Virus record (IMG/VR): IMGVR_UViG_3300046821_000076
Coordinates: 8,335 to 72,334 of that record
Strand: one strand, 5' to 3'
Length of the DNA stretch: 64,000 nt
Source: a virus
A program made the translations under genes and the position numbers. Shown here piece after piece: positions 2,409 to 64,000 of this stretch. The notes below the pieces were generated by a model. The model was given only the letters and a program-made list of their open reading frames with translations. It searched no databases and was not told the origin of the DNA. Every line of letters starts with the position of its first letter. Position 1 is the stretch's first letter.

Positions 2409-2593
2409 AAACAACCATGCCCCTATAGGTAGTGATACCTATTAGCAAACCTCCCTAATTCGGTGAAACTCTGACCATTAAGTTGAAGACAATACCGAGC
2501 AAGGCATTAGCCGTGTGTAACGACTATCGAAAAGCAGCTTAGCTGAACTGAGTAGAGTAAGACCCAAGTGGGTTTGAAATGGGAGGATGCTTA

Positions 2594-2622
2594 TTTACTT
2601 ACCACAACGTTAGTGCTATATT
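2594..2622 (+). promoter_or_regulatory. Sigma70-like internal promoter for intron HNH gene
   Basis: TTTACT-17 nt-TATATT with extended -10 TG, ~30 nt before GAGGA RBS/ATG 2654. Confidence 0.55.
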
Positions 2623-2653
2623 TAAATCTAGCTATAACATTGAGGAAAGTGCA

Positions 2654-3268
2654 ATGACAGTTTGGAAAGATATTTTAGGGTATGAAGGTTTATACCAAGT
2701 AAGTGATGAAGGTTCTGTAAAGGCACTAGCCAGATCAGTAACCAACAAGAACGGTAGACTACAACAGTATCCTGAAAGGGTTTTAAAAACGGATAAAAGT
2801 GTAATGAGTAATTCTACATACCATAGAGTTACTTTATGTAAGAACCACGTTACTTCTAGATTTTTAGTACATCGTTTAGTAGCAGAAGCTTTTATACCTA
2901 ATCCGTTAAATAAACCAATGATTAACCACATAGATAATGATGCAGAGAATAATCAGGTGTCTAACATAGAATGGGTAACTCATTCAGAGAATATGATACA
3001 TGCCCAAAAACAGGGTAGATTATTTCACGCACAGTCTAAGGCAGGTAAGGTAGCAGGTGCTATAAGCACAGCTAATTTACATAAACTAGCTCAAGACAGC
3101 GTAGGCTTATTATTTAATTCCTGGCAAGTTATTGATCCAGACTTATCCTATAGAGCAGGTAAAGCATACATACTTTGTAAGTGTGTTTGCGGTAAACAGG
3201 CTCAAATAGATTTTGCAAGATTACGTAGATTAGATGCTACGTCATGTAAGTCATGCGCTAAGAAGTAA
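2654..3268 (+). CDS. Intron-encoded NUMOD4-HNH homing endonuclease
   Basis: WKDILGYEGLYQVSDEG (NUMOD4), VHRLVAEAF..NHIDND..NN..N HNH core, C-terminal CxCG..CxxC module; GAGGA RBS before ATG 2654. Confidence 0.92.
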   Translation: MTVWKDILGYEGLYQVSDEGSVKALARSVTNKNGRLQQYPERVLKTDKSVMSNSTYHRVTLCKNHVTSRFLVHRLVAEAFIPNPLNKPMINHIDNDAENNQVSNIEWVTHSENMIHAQKQGRLFHAQSKAGKVAGAISTANLHKLAQDSVGLLFNSWQVIDPDLSYRAGKAYILCKCVCGKQAQIDFARLRRLDATSCKSCAKK

Positions 3269-3359: not shown

Positions 3360-5284
3360 TCGGTAAAGGTTTCTCTACAGGGCTTATTGAATCAGAAGTT
3401 ATTAATAAGTTTCGTGCTAACTTCATGGATAACACTTTCCATCTACAAGCAGAAACCAATATCAATGCACTAGCTAAACATAAAGCTCTACATAAAGGCA
3501 CAGACGTTACAGATGAAACTGAGCGCCTGATTAAAGAGTTTAATGCAGCAGGTTCGCTAATGTTCTCATTTGATGATGCAACTATGGCAGCAGTTAAACA
3601 GATGCGCCATAAGCTTATCATTGCAGGTTCAGGTGCGGTTAACTTGCAGGTAGATGAAGTAGGTACAAAGCTTGTAAACCAAGAAGATGTACTAGCAGGT
3701 TTCTTAGAACTGTATGACACAGGTAAGATGAAAGATAAGCTCATTAAGAATGGGCAAGAAAATCAACGTGTAGAACGTATTGAGGGACAGACTCCAGCAA
3801 ACATGCTTCTATTTGGTACACCAAGTAAGGTAATGGATGGAGGTAAAACTCAAGCGTATCTCGAAGCTATGCTAGAGATGGGATATGCAAGACGTTGTCT
3901 ATTTGGGTACTCAACCCATTTAGGAAAAGATACTACTTCTGATGCACAAACATTAGTGCAGTTACTTACTAATAGTAAGTCAGATGCAGTACTAAACAAC
4001 ATTGCTACTCATCTTGAACAGTTAGCTGATTATCCTAACCTGTCTAAAGAAATCACAATCCAAGAAGCTGAAGCAGTTTACTTAATGGAATATAAAATTA
4101 ACTGTTCAGAACGAGCAGAGCATTTTAAAGACCATGAGTTTAGTCTTAAAGCTGAGATGGACCATCGCTACTTTAAAGTACTCAAACTAGCAGGTTGCTA
4201 CGCATTCTTAGACTACAGTCCAGTTATCACTGTTGATCACTTGGATTACGCTATACGTATCGTAGAAGATTCAGGCGAAGACTTTAAACGTCTAATGACC
4301 CCTGAATACAACTATGAAAAGTTAGCAAAGTATTTAGCTGCTTTAAACCAACCAGTTACTCTACCTGATCTTGAGTATGCTCTACCTTACTTCCGTGGAA
4401 GCAGACAACAGAAAGAGTATTTGATTGAGTACGCTACTGCTTGGGGATATAAAAACAATGTTGTCATTAAGAAATCTTTTGACAATAACATTATGTTCTT
4501 AGCTGCAGACAGCTTAAAGCAAACCAATATAGATGAGATGATTATGTCTATCTCTACTCGTCTGTCTGAAGGTTACGAAGCTAAACGCGTACCATTTGAT
4601 CAGCTACACTTACTTGCTACAAACAATGAGTATCATTGGTGTAGTCACCACTTCCAAGGAGATATTCGTAGAGCTGAAAACGCATTACCTCTATTCAATA
4701 TGATTGTTCTAGATATTGATGGGACAATGCCACTTGGCGTAGCTCAAGACTTACTTAAACAGTATCGAGCATTCTTCTATACAACGAAGTCTCATACTGA
4801 AGAAGTACATCGCTATCGTATTATCTTACCGATCAACTACGAAGTAGAAATGGATCGTGAAGAATACAATGCGTGTATGGATGCAGTACTTCAAACCTTA
4901 CCGTTTGAATGTGATCCAGCAACTAAAGATATTGCACGTAAGTGGATGTGTAACGAAGGAGAGTACTTCTACCAAGAAGGCGAGCTATTCGATATCTTAC
5001 CGTTCATTCCAAATACTTCTCGAAGTGATGAACGTCAGCAAGCATTTCAAAACCAATCAGACTTAGACAATCTTGAGCGTTGGGTTCTAAACCATACAGG
5101 CGCAGGAAATCGTAACGATCAGATTTATAAGTATGCAATGGTACTTGCAGATGCAGGTAAATCATTAGAGCAGATTGGAGAGTTAGCACGTAACTTAAAC
5201 AATAAGCTAAGTGATCGTCTTTCTGATGAAGAGATAATGAACACAGTACTCAAATCTGTAAGTAATAAGATGAATCGAAAATAG
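3360..5284 (+). CDS. DNA primase (N4 gp43-like), exon 2
   Basis: GKG P-loop half, VDEVG Walker B-like, VLDIDG and YTTKSH..RYRII AEP-type primase motifs, C-terminal GNRND PriCT-like domain. Confidence 0.88.
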
Positions 5285-5345: not shown

Positions 5346-6077
5346 ATGTTAGACCAACAAAATGACTTTATGGTTTTAATTGGAGGAGAATCAGGTGCAG
5401 GTAAGACAACCTCATTGATGAATATCCGAGACCCTGAAGGTGTCTTATATCTTAATTGCGATGCAGGGAAACGCATCACTTTTAGACATAAGTTTAATAC
5501 TGTAACAGTTACTCATCCTATGCAAGTACTTGAAGGTATCAAAGCAGCTAATGGTTCTGAAAAGATTCATACAGTCATCATTGATACTTTATCGTTCTTG
5601 ATGGAGATGTACGAAACTCAGATTGTATTACGTGCAGATGATACTCGATCAGCTTGGGGAGATTACGCACAGTACCTCAAGACATTGATGCAAGAGTACA
5701 TTGCAGCAAGCACTAAGAACATTATTATCTTATCTCACATTGCAGACTACATTGATGAGTCTGCAGGGACTAAGAAAGTTCAAGTACCTCTTAAAGGGGC
5801 TTCAGCTAAAGTAGGTGTAGAAGCTTACTTATCTGTAGTAGTGAACGCTAAGAAAGTACCTATTGTTGAACTTGAGAAATACCCTTCAGAGTATTTACAT
5901 ATTACGGAAGAAGAACGTATTCAAGGATTCAAACACGTATTCCAAACCAAGGTTACAGCTAAGACAACTTCTGAGCGTATCCGTGGTCCAATTGGAATGT
6001 TTAAAGCAAATGAAGTATATATGGATAATGACGTACAGTTGTTATTGGATATTCTTCATGAGTACTACGAAGCGTAA
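5346..6077 (+). CDS. P-loop ATPase, Sak4/AAA_24-like (N4 gp44-like)
   Basis: GESGAGKT Walker A, VIIDT Walker B; synteny between primase and SSB. Confidence 0.85.
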   Translation: MLDQQNDFMVLIGGESGAGKTTSLMNIRDPEGVLYLNCDAGKRITFRHKFNTVTVTHPMQVLEGIKAANGSEKIHTVIIDTLSFLMEMYETQIVLRADDTRSAWGDYAQYLKTLMQEYIAASTKNIIILSHIADYIDESAGTKKVQVPLKGASAKVGVEAYLSVVVNAKKVPIVELEKYPSEYLHITEEERIQGFKHVFQTKVTAKTTSERIRGPIGMFKANEVYMDNDVQLLLDILHEYYEA

Positions 6078-6588
6078 GCGCAAAGACTTTACCTGGGCAG
6101 ATTTAGATGAACTGCTCAGGTATGATCCTCACACCGGTAAGCTTATTTGGCGAACCAACAAACACTCTAAATCGGTAGTACCTAACTCCATAGCTGGATG
6201 TATTAACAAAGCTACAGGATATAGAACAATTACTATTTTTGGGGTATCTTATGCGGCTCACCATGTAGCATGGTTTCTTCATTACAAGAAGTGGTCTGAA
6301 CACCAATTAGACCATATAAACCATATACGTAGTGATAACCGTATCGCTAATCTACGTGAAGTGTCTATAGCTGAGAATGCTAGAAACAGGAAGCGTAGAG
6401 ATAAAACCACAACAGGCGAGCATGGGATATGGTATGACAAGCAACGTAATAAATACGTAGCTGAGATTTCTATGGACCGTAAGCGCGTTTACTTGAAACG
6501 CTTTGATGATATCGAACAGGCAGTAGCTGAAAGAGAGTCAAAGTTAATTGAATTAGGATTCCATGAAAACCATGGGTCTAAACATTAA
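6058..6588 (+). CDS. Free-standing HNH endonuclease with AP2-like C-terminal domain
   Basis: LRYDPHTGKLIW, LDHINHIRSDNRIANL HNH motif, GIWYDKQRNKYVAEI AP2-like; likely start ATG 6058 overlapping upstream gene. Confidence 0.9.
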   Translation: MSTTKRKRKDFTWADLDELLRYDPHTGKLIWRTNKHSKSVVPNSIAGCINKATGYRTITIFGVSYAAHHVAWFLHYKKWSEHQLDHINHIRSDNRIANLREVSIAENARNRKRRDKTTTGEHGIWYDKQRNKYVAEISMDRKRVYLKRFDDIEQAVAERESKLIELGFHENHGSKH

Positions 6589-7860: not shown

Positions 7861-8368
7861 TCCTAGCTTTAGACATCTAGGTATAGCTATTGGTACTATG
7901 GATTGTGATACAGGGATACTCACAGTAAACCATATCGATACAGTCCATACCGTACCTAACCCAAACAAGAAAGTCCCAAACTCTACATGGGATATTTCGC
8001 AAGCAAAACTTTTATACACAGCTATTCAGGAATATACACTTGACGCTGATGTGGTGTGTATAGAAGTTCCTTATGGAAGCCAAGATGTTAAGGCAGCAGT
8101 AGGTAGGGGAATCTGTCTAGGTCTAATATCTACCATCCAATGTCCTAACATTTTCTTGGTCACTCCTCAGTCAGTAAAGAAAGTACTAGGCAATCCTAAA
8201 GCTACTAAGAAAGACTCAGTAGCTTGGGCTAGTACCACCCACCCAGAAGCTTCTTGGCATAAGCAAAGAGGTCGCGTAACTACAGAAGCTAATGAACATT
8301 CTGCAGACGCCTTGGCAGCTATATATGCAGCAGCTTCACAACATAACTTTAAATCTCTAAAGGAATAA
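7832..8368 (+). CDS. RuvC-like Holliday junction resolvase
   Basis: VSLDPSFRHLG, CIEVP, EHSADALA catalytic motifs; start placed at ATG 7832. Confidence 0.85.
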   Translation: MKTLKIVSLDPSFRHLGIAIGTMDCDTGILTVNHIDTVHTVPNPNKKVPNSTWDISQAKLLYTAIQEYTLDADVVCIEVPYGSQDVKAAVGRGICLGLISTIQCPNIFLVTPQSVKKVLGNPKATKKDSVAWASTTHPEASWHKQRGRVTTEANEHSADALAAIYAAASQHNFKSLKE

Positions 8369-48291: not shown

Positions 48292-49002
48292 ATGGTATCG
48301 CATATTAAAGATATTACAGGTATTAAATTCGGATCGCTTACTGCTATTAAATTAGCTTATGTTAAGAACAGACGGACTTATTGGGAGTATAGCTGCGTAT
48401 GCGGTAAAACTCACATTGCACGTGCTAGTACTGTAACTTATGAGGTAACTCGCAAAAACGATCCTGAATTACCATCATGCGGATGTATAGACGTAGCTAG
48501 AAAAACTAAACATGGTTTTCATAAAACTAATGATTTACACCCTGCCTATATAGCCTATAGAAATATGATGGCTAGATGCTACAACCCTAATGACACTGGC
48601 TATAAACGGTATGGAGCAGTAGGGGTAACTGTAGCAGACTGTTGGAAAGGTAACCCTGAAGCTTTTGTTAAATGGTCTCTTGAAAATGGATGGGATAAAA
48701 ACCTACACATTGATAAAGATATTAAATGTAAAGCCATGGGGATCTACCCTCATATATACAGTCCTGATACCTGTACTTGGACTACTGCTAAACTTAATGT
48801 AGCAGAAGCCACGAATAGAACTAATTACGGCAAACGTCCTAACATCAAGCTAAGCCAAGAAGAAGTAGATGAGATTCTTCATCTCTACTCCAGTGGAGAG
48901 ATTACTAACCAATCTGAGCTTGCTAGAATGTACGGAGTAACCCCAAGTTCTATATGTAGATTGATACCACTAGAATTAAATAAACGTAACAAGCTGATTT
49001 AA
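48292..49002 (+). CDS. Free-standing HNH-type homing endonuclease with C-terminal HTH
   Basis: FGSLT..CVCG..SCGC, YRNMMARCYNPN..YKRYG, HIDKD..YSPDTCTW, QSELARMYGVTPSSI HTH. Confidence 0.85.
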   Translation: MVSHIKDITGIKFGSLTAIKLAYVKNRRTYWEYSCVCGKTHIARASTVTYEVTRKNDPELPSCGCIDVARKTKHGFHKTNDLHPAYIAYRNMMARCYNPNDTGYKRYGAVGVTVADCWKGNPEAFVKWSLENGWDKNLHIDKDIKCKAMGIYPHIYSPDTCTWTTAKLNVAEATNRTNYGKRPNIKLSQEEVDEILHLYSSGEITNQSELARMYGVTPSSICRLIPLELNKRNKLI

Positions 49003-51757: not shown

Positions 51758-52969
51758 ATGAAACGTATTATTCCAACACAAGAACAGCAAGAAGTTCTAT
51801 CAAGAACATTGACTCATATCCTTATTCGTCCTGATAACGCTTTCTACGCATCTCTAGCATTAGGTGCTGAAACTTATTGGTCAAACGATATTCCTACAGC
51901 AGCTACCAACGGTAAAGACCTTGTCTTTAATCCTCAGTGGTTTACCTCTTTAAACAAAGAAGAACGTATTGGGTTAATTCTACATGAGTTAATGCACATG
52001 GTTTATCACCATACTATTCGTATCGGTAATCGCGATCCTGAGCTATGGAACGTAGCAGGGGATCATGTAATTAATACCGAGCTTAAGAAGAGTGGTTACA
52101 CACTTCCTAAAGGAGGTTGTTGTGATATGCGTTTTCAGGGTATGGAAACAGAAGAGGTATACAACATCCTCTGGGACGAAGAACAACAACAACCAGGAAA
52201 ACACAAAAACAACATGCCTGACTTATTACTCCCAGGAGAAGATGATTCAGATTCTCAAGGTCAATCTGCAGGAGAAAAAAGCCAAGGAGGGGATAGTGAA
52301 GGTAATATCCCAACTCCTTCTAAAGAAGAGATTGAACAGCACATCAAAGAACAATTAGTTCAAGCTGTACAATCTGCTCAACTGAAAGGACAAGCAGGAA
52401 ATATCCCTGGGAACATCGTACGAGATTTACAAAAGCTATTACAGCCTAAGTTACCTTGGAAACAGATTCTACGTAAGTTTCTATTCTCTATGAATAAGAC
52501 AGATTATTCATGGACTAAACCAAACAGACGATATATCCATCAAGGGATTATCTTACCTAGTCTTCATGGAGAATCATTAGGGCAAATTGATTTTGCTATT
52601 GATACTTCAGGCTCTGTAAGCATAGCTGACTTCAACCGTTTCATCAGTGAGATTGCTTATGTATTTAAGCAGTTTAAACCAGACGGTATAGGTGTATATC
52701 AATTCGATCACATCCTACAGTCTACAGACAAGGTAGCTACTCTTAATGACTTCATGAAATTAGAATTCAAAGGAGGAGGGGGTACTAATATCGAACCTGT
52801 ACTTGAGTACTATAAAGCTCAAAGTAAAGGTAAAGCGTTAATTGTACTTACTGATGGATACTTCCACCACACTGCTGAAATGAATCCAAACAAACCTGTT
52901 ATCTGGCTTATCTACGATAACCCTAACTGGCAACCTCCATTTGGTAAAGCAGTCTACTTTGACAACTAA
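51758..52969 (+). CDS. Metallopeptidase-like + vWA domain protein (DUF2201 / N4 gp25-like)
   Basis: TAATNG, HELMH, WNVAGD; IDTSGS MIDAS, GGGT, LTDG. Confidence 0.9.
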   Translation: MKRIIPTQEQQEVLSRTLTHILIRPDNAFYASLALGAETYWSNDIPTAATNGKDLVFNPQWFTSLNKEERIGLILHELMHMVYHHTIRIGNRDPELWNVAGDHVINTELKKSGYTLPKGGCCDMRFQGMETEEVYNILWDEEQQQPGKHKNNMPDLLLPGEDDSDSQGQSAGEKSQGGDSEGNIPTPSKEEIEQHIKEQLVQAVQSAQLKGQAGNIPGNIVRDLQKLLQPKLPWKQILRKFLFSMNKTDYSWTKPNRRYIHQGIILPSLHGESLGQIDFAIDTSGSVSIADFNRFISEIAYVFKQFKPDGIGVYQFDHILQSTDKVATLNDFMKLEFKGGGGTNIEPVLEYYKAQSKGKALIVLTDGYFHHTAEMNPNKPVIWLIYDNPNWQPPFGKAVYFDN

Positions 52970-59233: not shown

Positions 59234-59545
59234 ATGGATGATTCAACTCAACCTGATGTAATGGCAATTGTTATTACCATCTTACTCGGATGTGTAGCAG
59301 CTTTCGTATCAATAGGTCGTAAGATTTATAATGCACGTACTAAATTCTCATGGCTATGGCTCAGCACTGAGATTGGTTCATGTATCTTAGCAGGTTTCAT
59401 TGGCTATGAATCTTATCCTAGTATTCAAGCTGTATCCATGCTTTCTTGGATGCCTAAATCAGTCTTTGTGATTCTGTGCGTCTATAGCGGCTCAAGGCTC
59501 GTGTTACTTCTTGAAGAGAAAGCAAATAAAGCCTTTCCATCGTAA
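59234..59545 (+). CDS. Putative holin (three TM segments)
   Basis: 103 aa, three hydrophobic helices, GSR then charged C-tail; AGGAG RBS, own terminator. Confidence 0.6.
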   Translation: MDDSTQPDVMAIVITILLGCVAAFVSIGRKIYNARTKFSWLWLSTEIGSCILAGFIGYESYPSIQAVSMLSWMPKSVFVILCVYSGSRLVLLLEEKANKAFPS

Positions 59546-60895: not shown

Positions 60896-61522
60896 ATGAA
60901 TGAATTAGTATTAGCAGTATCTCGTGAAGCTTTAGGTGTAGGTACTGAATCCGGTATCTTCCCTATTGATCTAAATAGTATTGATAGTGAAGCGTATGCT
61001 TTATTACCTCGTCACATTGCAGACAACAAATCTGATAGTTCAGTAGCTTTAGGTAAGCTATTCCCTCAAATCCTAGGGTACGTACAGCTTGTGAATGAAC
61101 AAGGTGAAATCTTATCTTACGCTCGTAAAGGTAAAGAGAAAGGACTGCATGGATTACGTTCTATTGGCGTAGGAGGGCATGTATCACATGAGGAGCTAGT
61201 TACAGCTATCTATCGTTCAGATGATCCTACACAGCTTCCTACGTTAACTGAGCTTATTCAACTTGGTTTACGTAGAGAACTCCTCGAAGAAGTAGGTATT
61301 GATATTGGTACTTACATGGAAGCAAACCAGCTACTCGTATCAGATAGTAATATCACCTCTCAGGTACATGTAGGTTTACCTATGCAACTTGAAGTACCTG
61401 AGTTTGGTATTGTACTAGAGCAGTCAGAGTTCTTAGATGCTCGTTGGATTAGTGTTGAAGAGCTTAAAGCTACTGTAGACATCTATGAACCCTGGTCTCA
61501 GCTTATCATTCAACAACTGTAA
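60896..61522 (+). CDS. Nudix-family phosphoesterase
   Basis: QILGY, SIGVGGHV, RRELLEEVG, QVHVG motifs. Confidence 0.8.
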   Translation: MNELVLAVSREALGVGTESGIFPIDLNSIDSEAYALLPRHIADNKSDSSVALGKLFPQILGYVQLVNEQGEILSYARKGKEKGLHGLRSIGVGGHVSHEELVTAIYRSDDPTQLPTLTELIQLGLRRELLEEVGIDIGTYMEANQLLVSDSNITSQVHVGLPMQLEVPEFGIVLEQSEFLDARWISVEELKATVDIYEPWSQLIIQQL

Positions 61523-61527
61523 AATTA

Positions 61528-61551
61528 AACCCCTCAGAAGAGGGGTTTTTA
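61528..61551. terminator. Bidirectional terminator
   Basis: AAACCCCTC-AGAA-GAGGGGTTTTT between convergent genes. Confidence 0.85.
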
Positions 61552-61553
61552 AA

Positions 61554-62123
61554 CTAACGTAAACTAATATCTATACATCTTCCTGCAGGAATGCTCATAG
61601 GTACGTTTAGATCAGGTAAATACTTACCATTGCTAAATAATACGTCATAGACTTTTACAACAACAGTAGACGCTGCAGCAAATTCGATAGTACAAGTACA
61701 GAGTAAGTTACCTAACTCATCTCTAGGAAGAATATACTTAAAACCATTTAAACCATGAGAGGTAGCTGACGTAATAACGTAGGTATTAATGTCTTGCTTA
61801 GTCATAGTAAATGGTCTAACAGCTTGAGGGTAGTTGACGAGTCTATCGTCATACAGCTTAGTAGCTGAACCTCCTAGAACAAAGCTGTTATTAGTGTCTG
61901 TAAGTAAACCAAGATTGTCTCTAGCACCTTGAATGGTCTCTGCTCCTGTACCACCTTTAGATACAGGAACACCTGCAGTTGGAAGAGTAACAGTAGAACT
62001 ATTACCTGATAAGAATAAATAAAGTTCTTTAAAAGCGTCTTCACATTTAGCTCCAAAGACAATAGCAGAATCACCCTTCTTATCGTTAGCTGCTAAGCCT
62101 ATTGATATAACTTCTCTAGTCAC
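61554..62123 (-). CDS. Short tail-fibre-like protein
   Basis: ISIGLAANDKKGD..FKELY anchor motif, VSKGGTGA..ARDNLGL repeat, C-terminal IPAGRCIDISL; GGAG RBS before GTG. Confidence 0.7.
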   Translation of the reverse strand: MTREVISIGLAANDKKGDSAIVFGAKCEDAFKELYLFLSGNSSTVTLPTAGVPVSKGGTGAETIQGARDNLGLLTDTNNSFVLGGSATKLYDDRLVNYPQAVRPFTMTKQDINTYVITSATSHGLNGFKYILPRDELGNLLCTCTIEFAAASTVVVKVYDVLFSNGKYLPDLNVPMSIPAGRCIDISLR

Positions 62124-62148
62124 TTGTGTACTCCATAATTAGCATGGT

Positions 62149-62652
62149 TTAAGCCTCGTTAGTAGAGATACGACCTGCTGCTAGTACAGGTAGATCGTAG
62201 CGATAATCATGTGGAGTAGTACCTGTACTAATCCAACGATATGCTGTAACACGCTTAGGGTCAAAGTCCTGAATAGTTACAGCATTAGATTGGTTTCCAC
62301 CTAATACTTTAAGCATACCTGATTTAGTCTTACCTACTACAAAACCAACATGACCTCCACCATCACGTGTAAAGGTTACTACGCAACCATACGCAGGCTT
62401 ACTAAGTTTAGTGCCTGCATTCTCCCACTCTTTAGCTCTAAAGAACTCTTTAGGTACTTTGGCGCTGAGACCTGCTTCTTTAAACACTTGAGCGCAGAAA
62501 GTACCGCACCAGGGTTGTCCTATTAACCACTTACCTGATAGTGTTTTAGCCCATGCGTCTATAGTGGGGTGTTTATTCGATGCCTTAATTTCAGTTAAAC
62601 CTAAGTAGCTACGAGCTACTTTTATATGTGTTAACTCAGGAGTTGCACTCAT
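62149..62652 (-). CDS. Endolysin, TIGR02594/NlpC-P60-like peptidase
   Basis: PWCGTF, GGGHVGFVVG, LGGNQSNAV, YRW motifs; GAGGA RBS before ATG 62652. Confidence 0.88.
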   Translation of the reverse strand: MSATPELTHIKVARSYLGLTEIKASNKHPTIDAWAKTLSGKWLIGQPWCGTFCAQVFKEAGLSAKVPKEFFRAKEWENAGTKLSKPAYGCVVTFTRDGGGHVGFVVGKTKSGMLKVLGGNQSNAVTIQDFDPKRVTAYRWISTGTTPHDYRYDLPVLAAGRISTNEA

Positions 62653-62671
62653 TAATATATCCTCATATAAT
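62643..62671 (+). promoter_or_regulatory. Sigma70-like promoter for HNH gene overlapping endolysin start
   Basis: TTGCAC-17 nt-TATAAT. Confidence 0.65.
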
Positions 62672-62729
62672 AAAGTTACCCATGGAGTATTGTCATATAC
62701 ATACCCCAAAAGCATAAAAGGAATATACC

Positions 62730-63323
62730 ATGTCTAAAAGTTCTTGGGCTATTTTAGAGATATCAGGAAAATACGCAAAAGTACGTTGTACTTGTGGATA
62801 CACTGCAAAACGTAATACTTATGATATTAAATCAGGCAAATCTGTATGCTGTAAAACATGTTCTTACAGTATGCGTAAAGGCGTACCAATTAATGTAACC
62901 CACGGTTTAGCAGATTCACCTACTATGAATAGTTATGCCGATATGAAAAGAAGATGCTATGACCAAACCCGTAAAGATTATAAAAATTATGGAGGTCGTG
63001 GGATAACGGTACAAAAAGATTGGTTAGAAGGTACTGCTGAACTTTCTGGCTTTTCTTGTTTCGTACGTGATTTAGGTATGCGACCTAGTAAAGATTACCA
63101 ATTAGATCGTAAAGATAATAATGGGAATTATACCAAGGATAACTGTCATTGGGTTACACGTAGTAATAATATGCGTAACAGGCAGGATACTGTAAAAGTA
63201 AATTACAAAGGTAAAGAACATATACTAATAGAGTTATGCGAACAGAAAGGTATTAGCTACAAGAAGGTGTACCAACGTATGCATAAGTATGGTTGGGATG
63301 CGGATAGAGCTATAGATACCTAA
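62730..63323 (+). CDS. Free-standing HNH-type homing endonuclease, antisense to late operon
   Basis: CTCG..CKTC, YADMKRRCY..YKNYGGRGITV, LDRKDNNGNYTKDNCHW..N. Confidence 0.9.
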   Translation: MSKSSWAILEISGKYAKVRCTCGYTAKRNTYDIKSGKSVCCKTCSYSMRKGVPINVTHGLADSPTMNSYADMKRRCYDQTRKDYKNYGGRGITVQKDWLEGTAELSGFSCFVRDLGMRPSKDYQLDRKDNNGNYTKDNCHWVTRSNNMRNRQDTVKVNYKGKEHILIELCEQKGISYKKVYQRMHKYGWDADRAIDT

Positions 63324-63354
63324 TTACATGAGTTAACTCTGGTTTATCACTCAT
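63310..63354 (-). pseudogene. Orphaned endolysin N-terminus
   Basis: AGGAG RBS + MSDKPELTHV(IRYL stop), matching endolysin start MSATPELTHI. Confidence 0.75.
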
Positions 63355-63421
63355 GGTTTTCTCCTAGTAACTTACAAATTAGTTGAAGTAATAAGGCACC
63401 TCCTAAGAAGTGCCTGTTAAG

Positions 63422-63652
63422 TTATCCTTGTGATACGTTGACATAGACTGGCGTAACACCATCAGTCCATGCCCATACTGTTACACCTACACCGAAGCCA
63501 ATCTCTCGGATTAAGTGGAAGGCATCTACACTAGATACAGTAGCACCTACGTGGATTTTAAAATCTATCCCTGACGTAGAAGATAGTAATGCCCAGTTTT
63601 CAGCAGTAACAATCTTCACAGGTGCGTTGGTTAGTAAAACTTTAGTAGTCAT
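63422..63652 (-). CDS. Small beta-rich late protein
   Basis: TGATG coupling, GAGGA RBS. Confidence 0.7.
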   Translation of the reverse strand: MTTKVLLTNAPVKIVTAENWALLSSTSGIDFKIHVGATVSSVDAFHLIREIGFGVGVTVWAWTDGVTPVYVNVSQG

Positions 63653-63984
63653 CAGACTTCCTCTTGAGTATAAGCAATAAGGTTTAATTCAGTTAAGGCT
63701 GCTTGCCAGTTCTCTTGCGCATCACCATCTAAAGATAGACGTTCATACAAATGATTAAGTGACTCACGTAATTCTACAGGAACCATTAGGTTACGTAACC
63801 CATCATCACTGAATACTGCGTAATCTTCTGGCTTCCACCATGAATGACAACCCCAATAGATACCATCTTCACCTTGTAGTTTTATGGAAAGATTGTTATC
63901 ACCACAGCCATAAGCTCCAGCAATCTGGTTAATCGCATCTTTGTGAGCATCAGGGACGATGTTTACTACAGATAATTTAAACAC
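63652..63984 (-). CDS. Hypothetical late/tail-module protein
   Basis: 110 aa, GTG start with AGGGGT RBS; YWGCHSWW motif. Confidence 0.7.
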   Translation of the reverse strand: MFKLSVVNIVPDAHKDAINQIAGAYGCGDNNLSIKLQGEDGIYWGCHSWWKPEDYAVFSDDGLRNLMVPVELRESLNHLYERLSLDGDAQENWQAALTELNLIAYTQEEV

Positions 63985-64000
63985 TGAGCGTGACCCCTAT

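Follow-up and report, generated by a model that had tools for sequence, protein, structure and literature searches.

How does the lysin gene of a lytic phage stay whole when another gene lies inside its 5′ end? The locus that raises this question belongs to an N4-like phage. It is located in a window of 64,000 nucleotides, meaning the whole stretch of DNA that was analysed (positions 8,335 to 72,334 of IMG/VR record IMGVR_UViG_3300046821_000076). A block of about 702 bp stands between two diverged copies of the lysin start. Within this block, the cassette, lie an antisense HNH-like gene and a 77-nt spacer, together with a new ribosome site and start. The lysin is kept whole because the cassette supplies a ribosome site of its own as well as a start codon and the opening codons. 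The original lysin start is stranded upstream as a 14-codon orphan, and the lysin start is now that of the cassette. The sequence-only reading had placed an antisense HNH gene inside the lysin 5′ end and let it supply a second ribosome site and start and a replacement 5′ end, and this arrangement can be read directly from the letters. We consider the locus to be probably a free-standing homing-endonuclease cassette with a co-converted flank, placed in the lysin 5′ end.

The working lysin (62149..62652, minus strand) is a CHAP / TIGR02594 peptidoglycan hydrolase of 167 aa, the same length as in 80 of the 120 listed lysin relatives. It matches PF05257 with 31.9 bits (cut-off 26) and TIGR02594 with 117.6 bits (cut-off 70.55). 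Its ATG is at 62652, preceded by GAGGA and 7 nt, and its N-terminus reads MSATPELTHIKVAR. The protein presumably serves as the endolysin. A holin-like gene is found at 59234-59545 of the window. In phage At2, an Rz-like spanin directly follows the lysin, whereas the window has none at that place.

On the other side of the HNH gene, the orphan ORF (63310..63354, minus strand) has 14 codons and a stop. Its ribosome site, AGGAG at 63365..63361, lies 6 nt ahead of the ATG at 63354. The original lysin N-terminus, MSDKPELTHV, is encoded by codons 1-10 (63354..63325); codons 11-14 (IRYL) come from the antisense of the HNH gene 3′ end, and the stop follows at 63312..63310. The HNH gene ends 1 nt from the junction with orphan codon 10, where the complement of its stop codon (63321-63323) begins. 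The ancestral translation-initiation region of the lysin (63355..63370, minus strand) and the orphan start align with the start of the uninterrupted At2 lysin, with the common TTACTAGGAG. Just ahead of this region, a terminator-like hairpin (63394..63415, minus strand; 9 pairs, 5 of them G-C, tail TATTACTTCA) follows an upstream 76-aa ORF (63652..63422). The hairpin is a consensus match only.

The two starts form the largest direct repeat of the region, designated family D1 in the repeat search. The 42-nt copies, 62622..62663 at the working start and 63324..63365 at the orphan start, are 71% identical and spaced by 702, which is a multiple of 3 and equals the amount absent from the HNH-less contigs described below. 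In the coding part of the repeat 24 of 31 bases match, and none of 300 shuffles of the right flank reached this value (mean 17.8, maximum 23). As a control, the flanking repeats of four other HNH-like ORFs in the window never rose above shuffles.

The relatives indicate which start is older. The orphan 10-mer is exact in 5 of the 120 listed lysin relatives and matches at 9/10 or better in 39. The working 10-mer is exact in a single listed relative, with no other at 9/10, and this sole relative has the cassette spacer too. With the orphan 10-mer common among relatives and the working one nearly absent, the upstream start is the ancestral one, as had been proposed. HNH-less relatives with a single MSDKPEL.. 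start on the lysin body, another expectation of the sequence-only reading, were found as phage At2, the proteins P0023 and P0043, and contigs of two other metagenomes (X5 and X6).

The 5′ part of the working lysin is not of the same origin as its body. Codons 1-62 (62467..62652, minus strand) are of a donor type linked to the cassette and are identical to P0010/P0193 over aa 1-62. P0193, the 188-aa reading of P0010, occurs on 20 contigs and differs from the window lysin at 22 of the last 105 residues; one cassette is thus seen on two lysin bodies. At sites informative against P0002, all 10 up to aa 44 are donor-like. From aa 66 on, 11 are resident-like, 3 are like neither, and 0 of 14 are donor-like. 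The crossover into the resident-type body falls between codons 45 and 63 (about 62464-62520), leaving a clean conversion tract to about codon 62. Markers flanking the endonuclease gene are accordingly co-converted with it in this mosaic. For aa 63-167, the best matches mostly have MSDK/MGDK..HVAIARKY N-termini; eight alleles are tied at 94/105, and five of these match the orphan at 9/10. Before the cassette arrived, the resident lysin was, on the best reading of these sequences, of the common MSDKPELTHVAIARKY type.

These results bear on the proposal that ten codons had been duplicated and recoded. The duplicated start holds, but recoding does not fit a donor-type stretch that reaches about codon 62. 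The "recoded" codons are better read as an imported natural allele, because of this tract and because the spacer resembles the upstream spacer of the At2 lysin. The two divergent spacers have the same length and are weakly alignable (score 5 versus -8.75 ± 4.1, reached in 4 of 1000 shuffles). Read through, the window spacer encodes a 21-aa extension, and P0193 opens with the same 21 residues. The presumably associated HNH protein, P0195, is identical to that of the window at 186 of 197 residues; the pairing P0193/P0195 (longest contig 77441 for both), like P0006/P0124, rests on longest contigs of equal size.

Empty and filled alleles of the same site occur in nature. HNH-bearing contigs were found in X4, X5, X6, and X10; three runs from other studies have such contigs, one of which spans the orphan. 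Record 23 of X5 covers 62787-63370, including the orphan, with 11 differences, and record 32 of X6 covers 62699-63141 with 2 differences. The HNH-less contigs of X5 and X6 lack exactly 702 bp and have a single uninterrupted orphan-type start, so that the site is polymorphic for presence and absence of the block, At2, P0023, and P0043 included. The 213-nt contig of X5 follows 62458-62610 with 4 differences, continues with 25 other letters, and resumes at 63338 onward. Read by hand, it has an in-frame 14-codon N-terminus of the P0009/P0011/P0014 type. The X6 contig joins 62631 to 63334, skipping 702, with 6 shared letters at the joint. Since this joint is inside the repeat, it may represent a secondary deletion between the repeats instead of a naive target. 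The threshold for calling the X5 and X6 joints was 80% likeness, their sides measured 33 and 37 letters, and such joints need care. Read depths are unable to rank the HNH-bearing and HNH-less alleles, and uncovered parts were left out.

The HNH-like (beta-beta-alpha-Me) gene of the cassette (62730..63323, plus strand, antisense to the lysin) encodes 197 aa. The protein matches two PHROG families named 'HNH endonuclease', phrog_374 (E 1e-42) and phrog_3377 (E 2e-41), and the profile of its 47-sequence family matches the HNH motif of I-HmuI (1u3e_M) with an E of 0.056. The AlphaFold model (pLDDT 88.7) has a predicted beta-beta-alpha element at residues 123-149, with strands at 123-127 and 139-143 and a helix at 144-149. 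The top VIA-align fold match, PacI (3m7k_A; Z 5.6, 92 residues, rmsd 4.7), is weak, and the Gme HNH fold gave Z 2.8; values of Z below 8 may mean only a common arrangement. Foldseek against the PDB returned nothing at E up to 0.001. The single-sequence PDB search gave chance matches only, NCBIfam gave no match, and among the Pfam models up to E 10 there was none for HNH and only a chance CG-1 match. Residues D126, N130, N138, and N150, each at least 90% conserved in the 47 sequences, align with D/N of the I-HmuI motif. The His next to Asp in the HNH motif is the general base. The D-H pair of I-HmuI corresponds to D126-R127 here, and R127 is also conserved in at least 90% of the family alignment. 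Catalysis by the protein is not assured, because Arg stands where the catalytic His should be. Close relatives in other metagenomes are 91-93% identical, and seven HNH clusters are 85-93% identical. Scans with the HNH protein found only relatives at 40% identity in IMG/VR and only relatives at 36-40% in the JGI metagenomes. A 69-aa antisense ORF of At2 has no similarity to the HNH protein and no PHROG match.

The divergent spacer (62653..62729) holds the ribosome sites of both genes and promoter-like hexamers. The sequence-only reading had taken the hexamers for a promoter of the HNH gene and a possible one of the lysin. Their letters are present, but the promoter reading is not supported by the letters of the -35 box or by the number of such sites in the region, which is at background (6 versus 7.7 ± 2.7 in shuffles). 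The plus-strand TTGCAC-17-TATAAT, which extends from the spacer into lysin codons 3-4, is a 9/12 consensus match only. Its TTGCAC agrees with TTGACA at 3/6, and the promoter scan omits the site for this reason. The minus-strand ATGACA-18-TATTAT is listed by the scan at 10/12. We rejected promoter building as the origin of the two changed codons, given the 3/6 box, the background site count, and the MSEK.. variant P0006, a probable second cassette-linked allele without the two codons said to form the -35 box.

We propose a homing mechanism for the cassette. The HNH protein would cut HNH-less alleles near codons 7-14, and a co-infecting genome with the cassette would serve as the template for repair of the break. 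One repair arm would be the orphan start region (about 47 nt), and the opposite arm would be the lysin body. The phage has genes for Sak4-like annealing, exonuclease, SSB, RuvC-like, and Gam-like proteins, and the first two of these may assist in the repair. The diverged working 5′ end would make the carrier immune. The first junction, from codon 10 to the HNH stop, may have formed illegitimately, in an encounter between a donor whose HNH gene was intergenic and a phage with an unrelated upstream region. On a bolder reading, which is possible but far from established, the cassette keeps both arms inside one conserved gene and restarts that gene with its own start region and a cleavage-immune 5′ end. 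An antisense free-standing endonuclease would thereby gain the portability of introns and inteins while needing no splicing, and phages whose upstream DNA is unrelated would be open to it.

The orphan may also have been kept for a job, as a homology arm, a small translated ORF, or an antisense element tuning HNH expression. This idea, which would add to the homing-cassette explanation instead of replacing it, is possible but far from established. An in-gene homology arm would be useful because the DNA upstream varies from relative to relative. When 61500-64000 was compared with phages, megablast gave no match, blastn aligned the lysin gene alone (At2, 78%), and the IMG/VR scan with the lysin found relatives at 57% identity or less only. 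The lysin flanks and upstream regions are mosaic or different among relatives. The orphan and its ribosome site are present in the HNH-bearing contig of another study, contigs of other runs no longer resemble the window beyond 63370, and loose ends in X6 lie at 63370 too. Such retention may simply be due to recent common descent, only one independent contig is involved, and the X10 contig is not aligned over the orphan. That contig, record 6, covers 62543-63329, and its last 23 letters, at the orphan position, do not fit the window, which is compatible with an absent or a diverged orphan. More specifically, we tentatively suggest that the stranded ribosome site and ten codons are the upstream recombination arm, and that the immune copy of the target may act as an autorepression operator, as in I-TevI.

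A competing explanation takes the block for the scar of one illegitimate recombination at a module boundary between two phages, with the HNH gene carried along passively as a passenger. Presence and absence would then arise by ordinary recombination or by deletion between the 42-nt repeats. The missing canonical His and Pfam HNH match of the family, the X6 joint with its 6 shared letters, the mosaic lysin flanks, and a spacer that looks like a natural lysin upstream region are all in keeping with a passenger. A passenger does not readily account for a cassette with an identical spacer and 5′ tract on two bodies that differ at 22/105 residues, since a tract that starts at the cassette on two lysin bodies is the hallmark of co-conversion during homing. 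The cassette also recurs in at least 20 contigs and across runs from several studies, and family members elsewhere are placed like free-standing homing endonuclease genes. We therefore regard the passenger explanation as unlikely and prefer the homing cassette. Joining of orphan and body by intron splicing, trans-splicing, or ribosomal bypass to give a mature MSDK... lysin finds its only support in the strong ribosome site and intact 10-codon match of the orphan, and is highly improbable against an antisense intervening gene, an orphan frame that ends after 14 codons, a standard 167-aa body with its own ribosome site and ATG, a second full copy of codons 1-10 that splicing would make redundant, and an Rfam search of 61400-64000 that gave no match up to E 1. 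The absence of an Rfam intron family from the locus agrees with the splicing-free arrangement suggested earlier.

The usual view is that free-standing homing endonuclease genes stay in intergenic sites or else split the host gene that they enter. The known ways into a coding region are introns and inteins. The locus points to a third way in phage, in which the gene start is duplicated and the gene restarted. The target, the immune allele, and the junction all fall within about 50 nt, which makes a compact study system, and the locus could address target choice, immunity, and the minimal homology for spread among mosaic phages. Annotation is affected too, since gene callers at such loci put the lysin start too far upstream or in a wrong place, as in the 188-aa form, and an orphan start with a strong ribosome site can flag a past invasion.

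Among known systems, the lysK intron of Staphylococcus phage K has a homing endonuclease within an important gene, with both arms in that gene. Endonucleases borne by introns or inteins rely on the ribozyme or the intein, whereas neither was found here, the endonuclease ORF is antisense to its host gene, and integrity is kept by a second start. The Acinetobacter Obolenskvirus phages LZ35 and AbP2 are closer in layout, with an antisense HNH gene directly upstream of the endolysin and empty sites in sister phages. In LZ35, a 40%-identical member of the HNH family lies in antisense orientation immediately ahead of an unrelated endolysin. It is inserted after nucleotide 5 of the lysin ORF, and IME-AB2 has the empty site. 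AbP2 has 17 differences in the first 51 nt of the endolysin versus 0-9 per 51 nt elsewhere. Both endolysins are of another family (GH108), and only 4-5 nt of the old start are left (ATGAA / ATGA) with no orphan ORF, whereas a ribosome site and 10 codons are left here. Family members in Klebsiella LPKP33, Vibrio helene, and Acinetobacter YNAF are same-sense and away from lysins. Lysin adjacency is thus not a family trait, being found in one of the four members checked.

In the openly readable full texts that were searched, no phage homing endonuclease is described that duplicates and restarts the 5′ end of a gene, nor is there one in the passages of PMC10448857, PMC12724721, and PMC10888812. 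In the T4-like phages, the excerpts of PMC2988022 describe the free-standing endonucleases mobE, mobA, and the seg genes. As here, these endonuclease genes are beside or inside conserved genes, vary by presence and absence, and co-convert their flanks. Coding-region insertions in that group are given there for Aeh1 nrdA, T4 gene 39/60, and gene 43 (PMC2988022). The T4-like genes are intergenic or split the host gene into polypeptides that reassemble, whereas here the gene is unsplit, with ten codons duplicated and the gene restarted. For I-TevI, the same excerpts report that a sequence like the homing site overlaps its own promoter and gives autorepression. In our locus, the promoter-like site of the HNH gene, itself a 9/12 consensus match only, is overlapped by the immune copy of the presumed target.

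The closest likeness is with the mORFs of fungal mitochondria, reported in the excerpts of PMC3630166 for atp6 of Allomyces macrogynus and for atp6, atp9, cox2, and nad3 of Glomus sp. In these, as here, an endonuclease ORF is inside a protein gene without an intron and a diverged copy of the gene end is now used. The native end is displaced as a remnant that is closer to relatives than the inserted copy is (PMC3630166). Our locus agrees in that the endonuclease ORF is flanked by two copies of the gene terminus, of which the native one is closer to relatives. It departs from the sense orientation and 3′ replacement of the mORFs, as it is antisense with the 5′ end replaced. The mORFs described in these excerpts replace the 3′ end and are sense, often in-frame LAGLIDADG or GIY-YIG ORFs of organelles, whereas our lytic phage has an antisense HNH-like gene and a 5′ end with a substitute ribosome site and start (PMC3630166). 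By analogy, the locus is a 5′-end, antisense mirror of the fungal mitochondrial mORFs.

The lysin gene of the window is occupied by an antisense HNH-like gene and has been supplied with a replacement 5' end; this structure is real, and the sequence-only reading was right in its core idea. The working lysin (167 aa, 62652..62149, minus strand) matches CHAP (PF05257, 31.9 bits against a cut-off of 26) and TIGR02594 (117.6 bits, cut-off 70.55). Its N-terminus is MSATPELTHIKVAR, and the ribosome site GAGGA plus 7 nt stands ahead of its ATG. The HNH-like ORF (197 aa, 62730..63323, plus strand) hits two PHROG families annotated as HNH endonuclease (1e-42 and 2e-41). On its far side, an orphan start (ATG 63354, minus strand, AGGAG plus 6 nt ahead) reads MSDKPELTHV, followed by four codons antisense to the HNH-like gene and a stop. 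Together the two starts make up a 42-nt direct repeat, larger than any other in the region, with 71% identity and a spacing of 702. Of its 31 coding bases, 24 agree, a level reached in 0 of 300 shuffles, and 1 nt separates the end of this match from the HNH stop codon. No flanking direct repeats above shuffles were found at the four other HNH-endonuclease PHROG ORFs of the window (2579-3268, 5863-6588, 48292-49002, and 51758-52969), one of which overlaps the end of a Sak4-like annealing-protein ORF (5346-6077). A palindrome at 62603-62621, with perfect 8-bp arms and a 3-nt loop, spans lysin codons 11-17 and adjoins the end of the duplicated stretch; it is terminator-like on the plus strand in a scan and, by hand reading, absent from an HNH-less allele in the public metagenome run X5.

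Both starts were compared with the N-termini of the 120 best-matching lysins in public metagenomes (63-88% identity). The orphan 10-mer is the exact N-terminus in 5 of them and matches at 9/10 or better in 39, whereas the working-start 10-mer is exact only in the relative P0010 and reaches at least 9/10 in no other of the 120. The nearest named relative of the lysin locus is Acinetobacter phage At2, whose uninterrupted lysin has 86% protein and 78% DNA identity to that of the window; the regions flanking the lysin are not alignable between At2 and the window. The At2 start region can be aligned to the sequence preceding the orphan ATG, with TTACTAGGAG in common, and fits the sequence preceding the working ATG less closely. 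Judged by the N-terminus counts and the At2 alignment, the orphan is the common, ancestral lysin start and the working start a rare type.

The cassette, a block of about 702 bp, comprises the HNH-like gene, a 77-nt spacer, and the substitute start region. The spacer has the same size as the At2 divergent spacer between the lysin and an unrelated antisense ORF of 69 aa (At2 3714-3923, minus strand, no PHROG match). The alignment of the two spacers is weak but above chance (score 5 versus -8.75 ± 4.1; 4 of 1000 shuffles). The spot upstream of the lysin seems to gather antisense genes. Because the spacer resembles that of At2 and the working N-terminus is a natural though rare allele, we regard the codons earlier taken as ten recoded in place as coming from an imported allele that kept its natural start region.

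The proposal that two changed codons create a -35 box for the HNH-like gene did not hold up either. The promoter scan lists ATGACA-18-TATTAT (minus strand) at 10/12 and leaves TTGCAC-17-TATAAT unlisted, because its first hexamer matches at only 3 of 6 positions. Promoter-like sites in the region are at background (6 versus 7.7 ± 2.7 in shuffles). The lysin P0006 is probably linked to the HNH protein P0124, both having a longest contig of 13,631, and P0006 begins MSEK, thus without the two codons in question. Expression coupling of the HNH-like gene and the lysin finds no support here.

The lysin itself is a mosaic. Residues 1-62 of the window lysin are the same in P0010, and 22 of the 105 after them differ. 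Among the sites that distinguish P0010 from the relative P0002, all 10 up to residue 44 have the P0010 state in the window; of those from residue 66 onward, 11 have the P0002 state, none the P0010 state, and 3 neither, placing the crossover between codons 45 and 63. Over residues 63-167, the eight closest alleles are tied at 94/105 and have mostly MSDK/MGDK..HVAIARKY N-termini, the orphan type; five of these alleles agree with the orphan at 9/10 residues. P0193, a 188-aa member of the P0010 cluster found on 20 contigs, has 21 extra N-terminal residues that are an exact read-through of the window spacer (62653-62715), and therefore the same spacer lies upstream of that lysin. The 188-aa form is an annotation trap, since callers sometimes start the lysin at the upstream ATG 62715. 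From equal longest contigs (77,441), we infer that P0193 is paired with the HNH protein P0195, which is identical to the window protein at 186 of 197 residues. Going by these allele comparisons, the cassette has moved between lysin alleles. The mosaic is the pattern expected of an endonuclease cassette entering a resident gene, with flank conversion up to the crossover.

Empty and filled sites were sought by aligning contigs of four public runs to 61500-64000 at 80% likeness. An HNH-less contig of 213 nt in X5 covers 62458-62610 with 4 differences, continues with 25 other letters, and resumes at 63338. Read by hand, it has a single in-frame 14-codon start of the MSDKPELKHIAIAR type, also seen in proteins P0009, P0011, and P0014, followed by window lysin codon 15; this is an HNH-less relative with one start joined to the lysin body, of the kind that the sequence-only reading had expected. 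In run X6, 62631 is joined to 63334, skipping 702 with 6 letters common to both sides; the joint falls within the repeat and may have arisen through a secondary deletion. Both HNH-less forms lack a net 702 bp, the same as the distance between the repeat copies and divisible by three; their joints, with sides of 33 and 37 letters, were called at below 95% likeness. HNH-bearing contigs include one in X5 (62787-63370, 11 differences, orphan included, unlike the window past 63370), one in X6 (62699-63141, 2 differences), and one in run X10 (62543-63329, 40 differences), whose last 23 letters misfit, leaving the orphan unconfirmed there. Run X4, possibly a source sample, contributes pieces that match the window without a difference.

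Homing with flank co-conversion is the most likely mechanism. The likely origin would be a donor with an HNH gene just upstream of its lysin; on meeting a phage with unrelated upstream DNA, an illegitimate joint would connect resident codon 10 to the HNH stop.

The HNH-like protein has no Pfam or NCBIfam model match. A profile of its 47-sequence family matches the HNH motif of I-HmuI (E 0.056), and the motif Asp and Asn residues are conserved; residues 126-127 are Asp-Arg versus Asp-His in I-HmuI, and at least 90% of the family share this Arg. A nearly invariant His58 occurs in an HG motif far upstream. A beta-beta-alpha element spans residues 123-149 of the predicted structure (pLDDT 88.7). 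In fold comparison, the HNH restriction enzyme PacI ranks first (Z 5.6 over 92 residues), and I-TevI and I-HmuI give weak matches (Z about 3) between their DNA-binding domains and the C-terminal part; Foldseek found nothing. These matches are suggestive of an endonuclease, not proof, and the population pattern argues for mobility of the cassette.

The phage is N4-like, with a 4486-aa ORF of virion-RNA-polymerase size and N4-like RNA polymerase subunits in the window, together with portal, major head protein, and terminase genes. The virus record (72,334 bp, of which the window is bases 8335-72334) is rated 93% complete. The phage encodes a recombination set of Sak4-like annealing protein, exonuclease, SSB, RuvC-like, and Gam-like proteins. 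An Rz-like spanin gene follows the At2 lysin (4507-4902); in the window, a tail-fibre-like ORF (61554-62123) lies 25 nt beyond the lysin (gap 62124-62148), with no spanin there. A holin-like ORF is on the opposite strand (59234-59545).

Full-text literature searches turned up no phage case of a duplicated, restarted 5' gene end. A related arrangement is found at the site just ahead of the endolysin in Obolenskvirus phages. Acinetobacter phage LZ35 (1412-2130) has a member of the window's HNH family there, 40% identical and in antisense; it is flanked by a holin-like gene and a GH108 endolysin, and its insertion after ATGAA brings a new stop along with a new start region. The site is empty in IME-AB2 (440-480), where the preceding gene and the lysin ATG overlap by 11 nt. 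AbP2 (460-1100) carries a different HNH gene there, and the first 51 nt of its lysin have 17 differences, versus 0-9 per 51 nt elsewhere. This different HNH gene is upstream of the endolysin in many others too, all antisense; the AbP2 HNH start overlaps the first 39 nt of the endolysin, within the heavily diverged stretch. Passages of PMC2988022 describe free-standing endonuclease genes of the T4 type as lying between genes or dividing the host gene into two polypeptides, and the I-TevI promoter as overlapping a homing-site-like operator. According to passages of PMC3630166, fungal mitochondrial mORFs are inserted in atp6, atp9, cox2, and nad3, bringing a diverged substitute C-terminus and displacing the native one. 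As those passages describe them, these mORFs are the closest analogue, which the window locus mirrors at the 5' end and in antisense.
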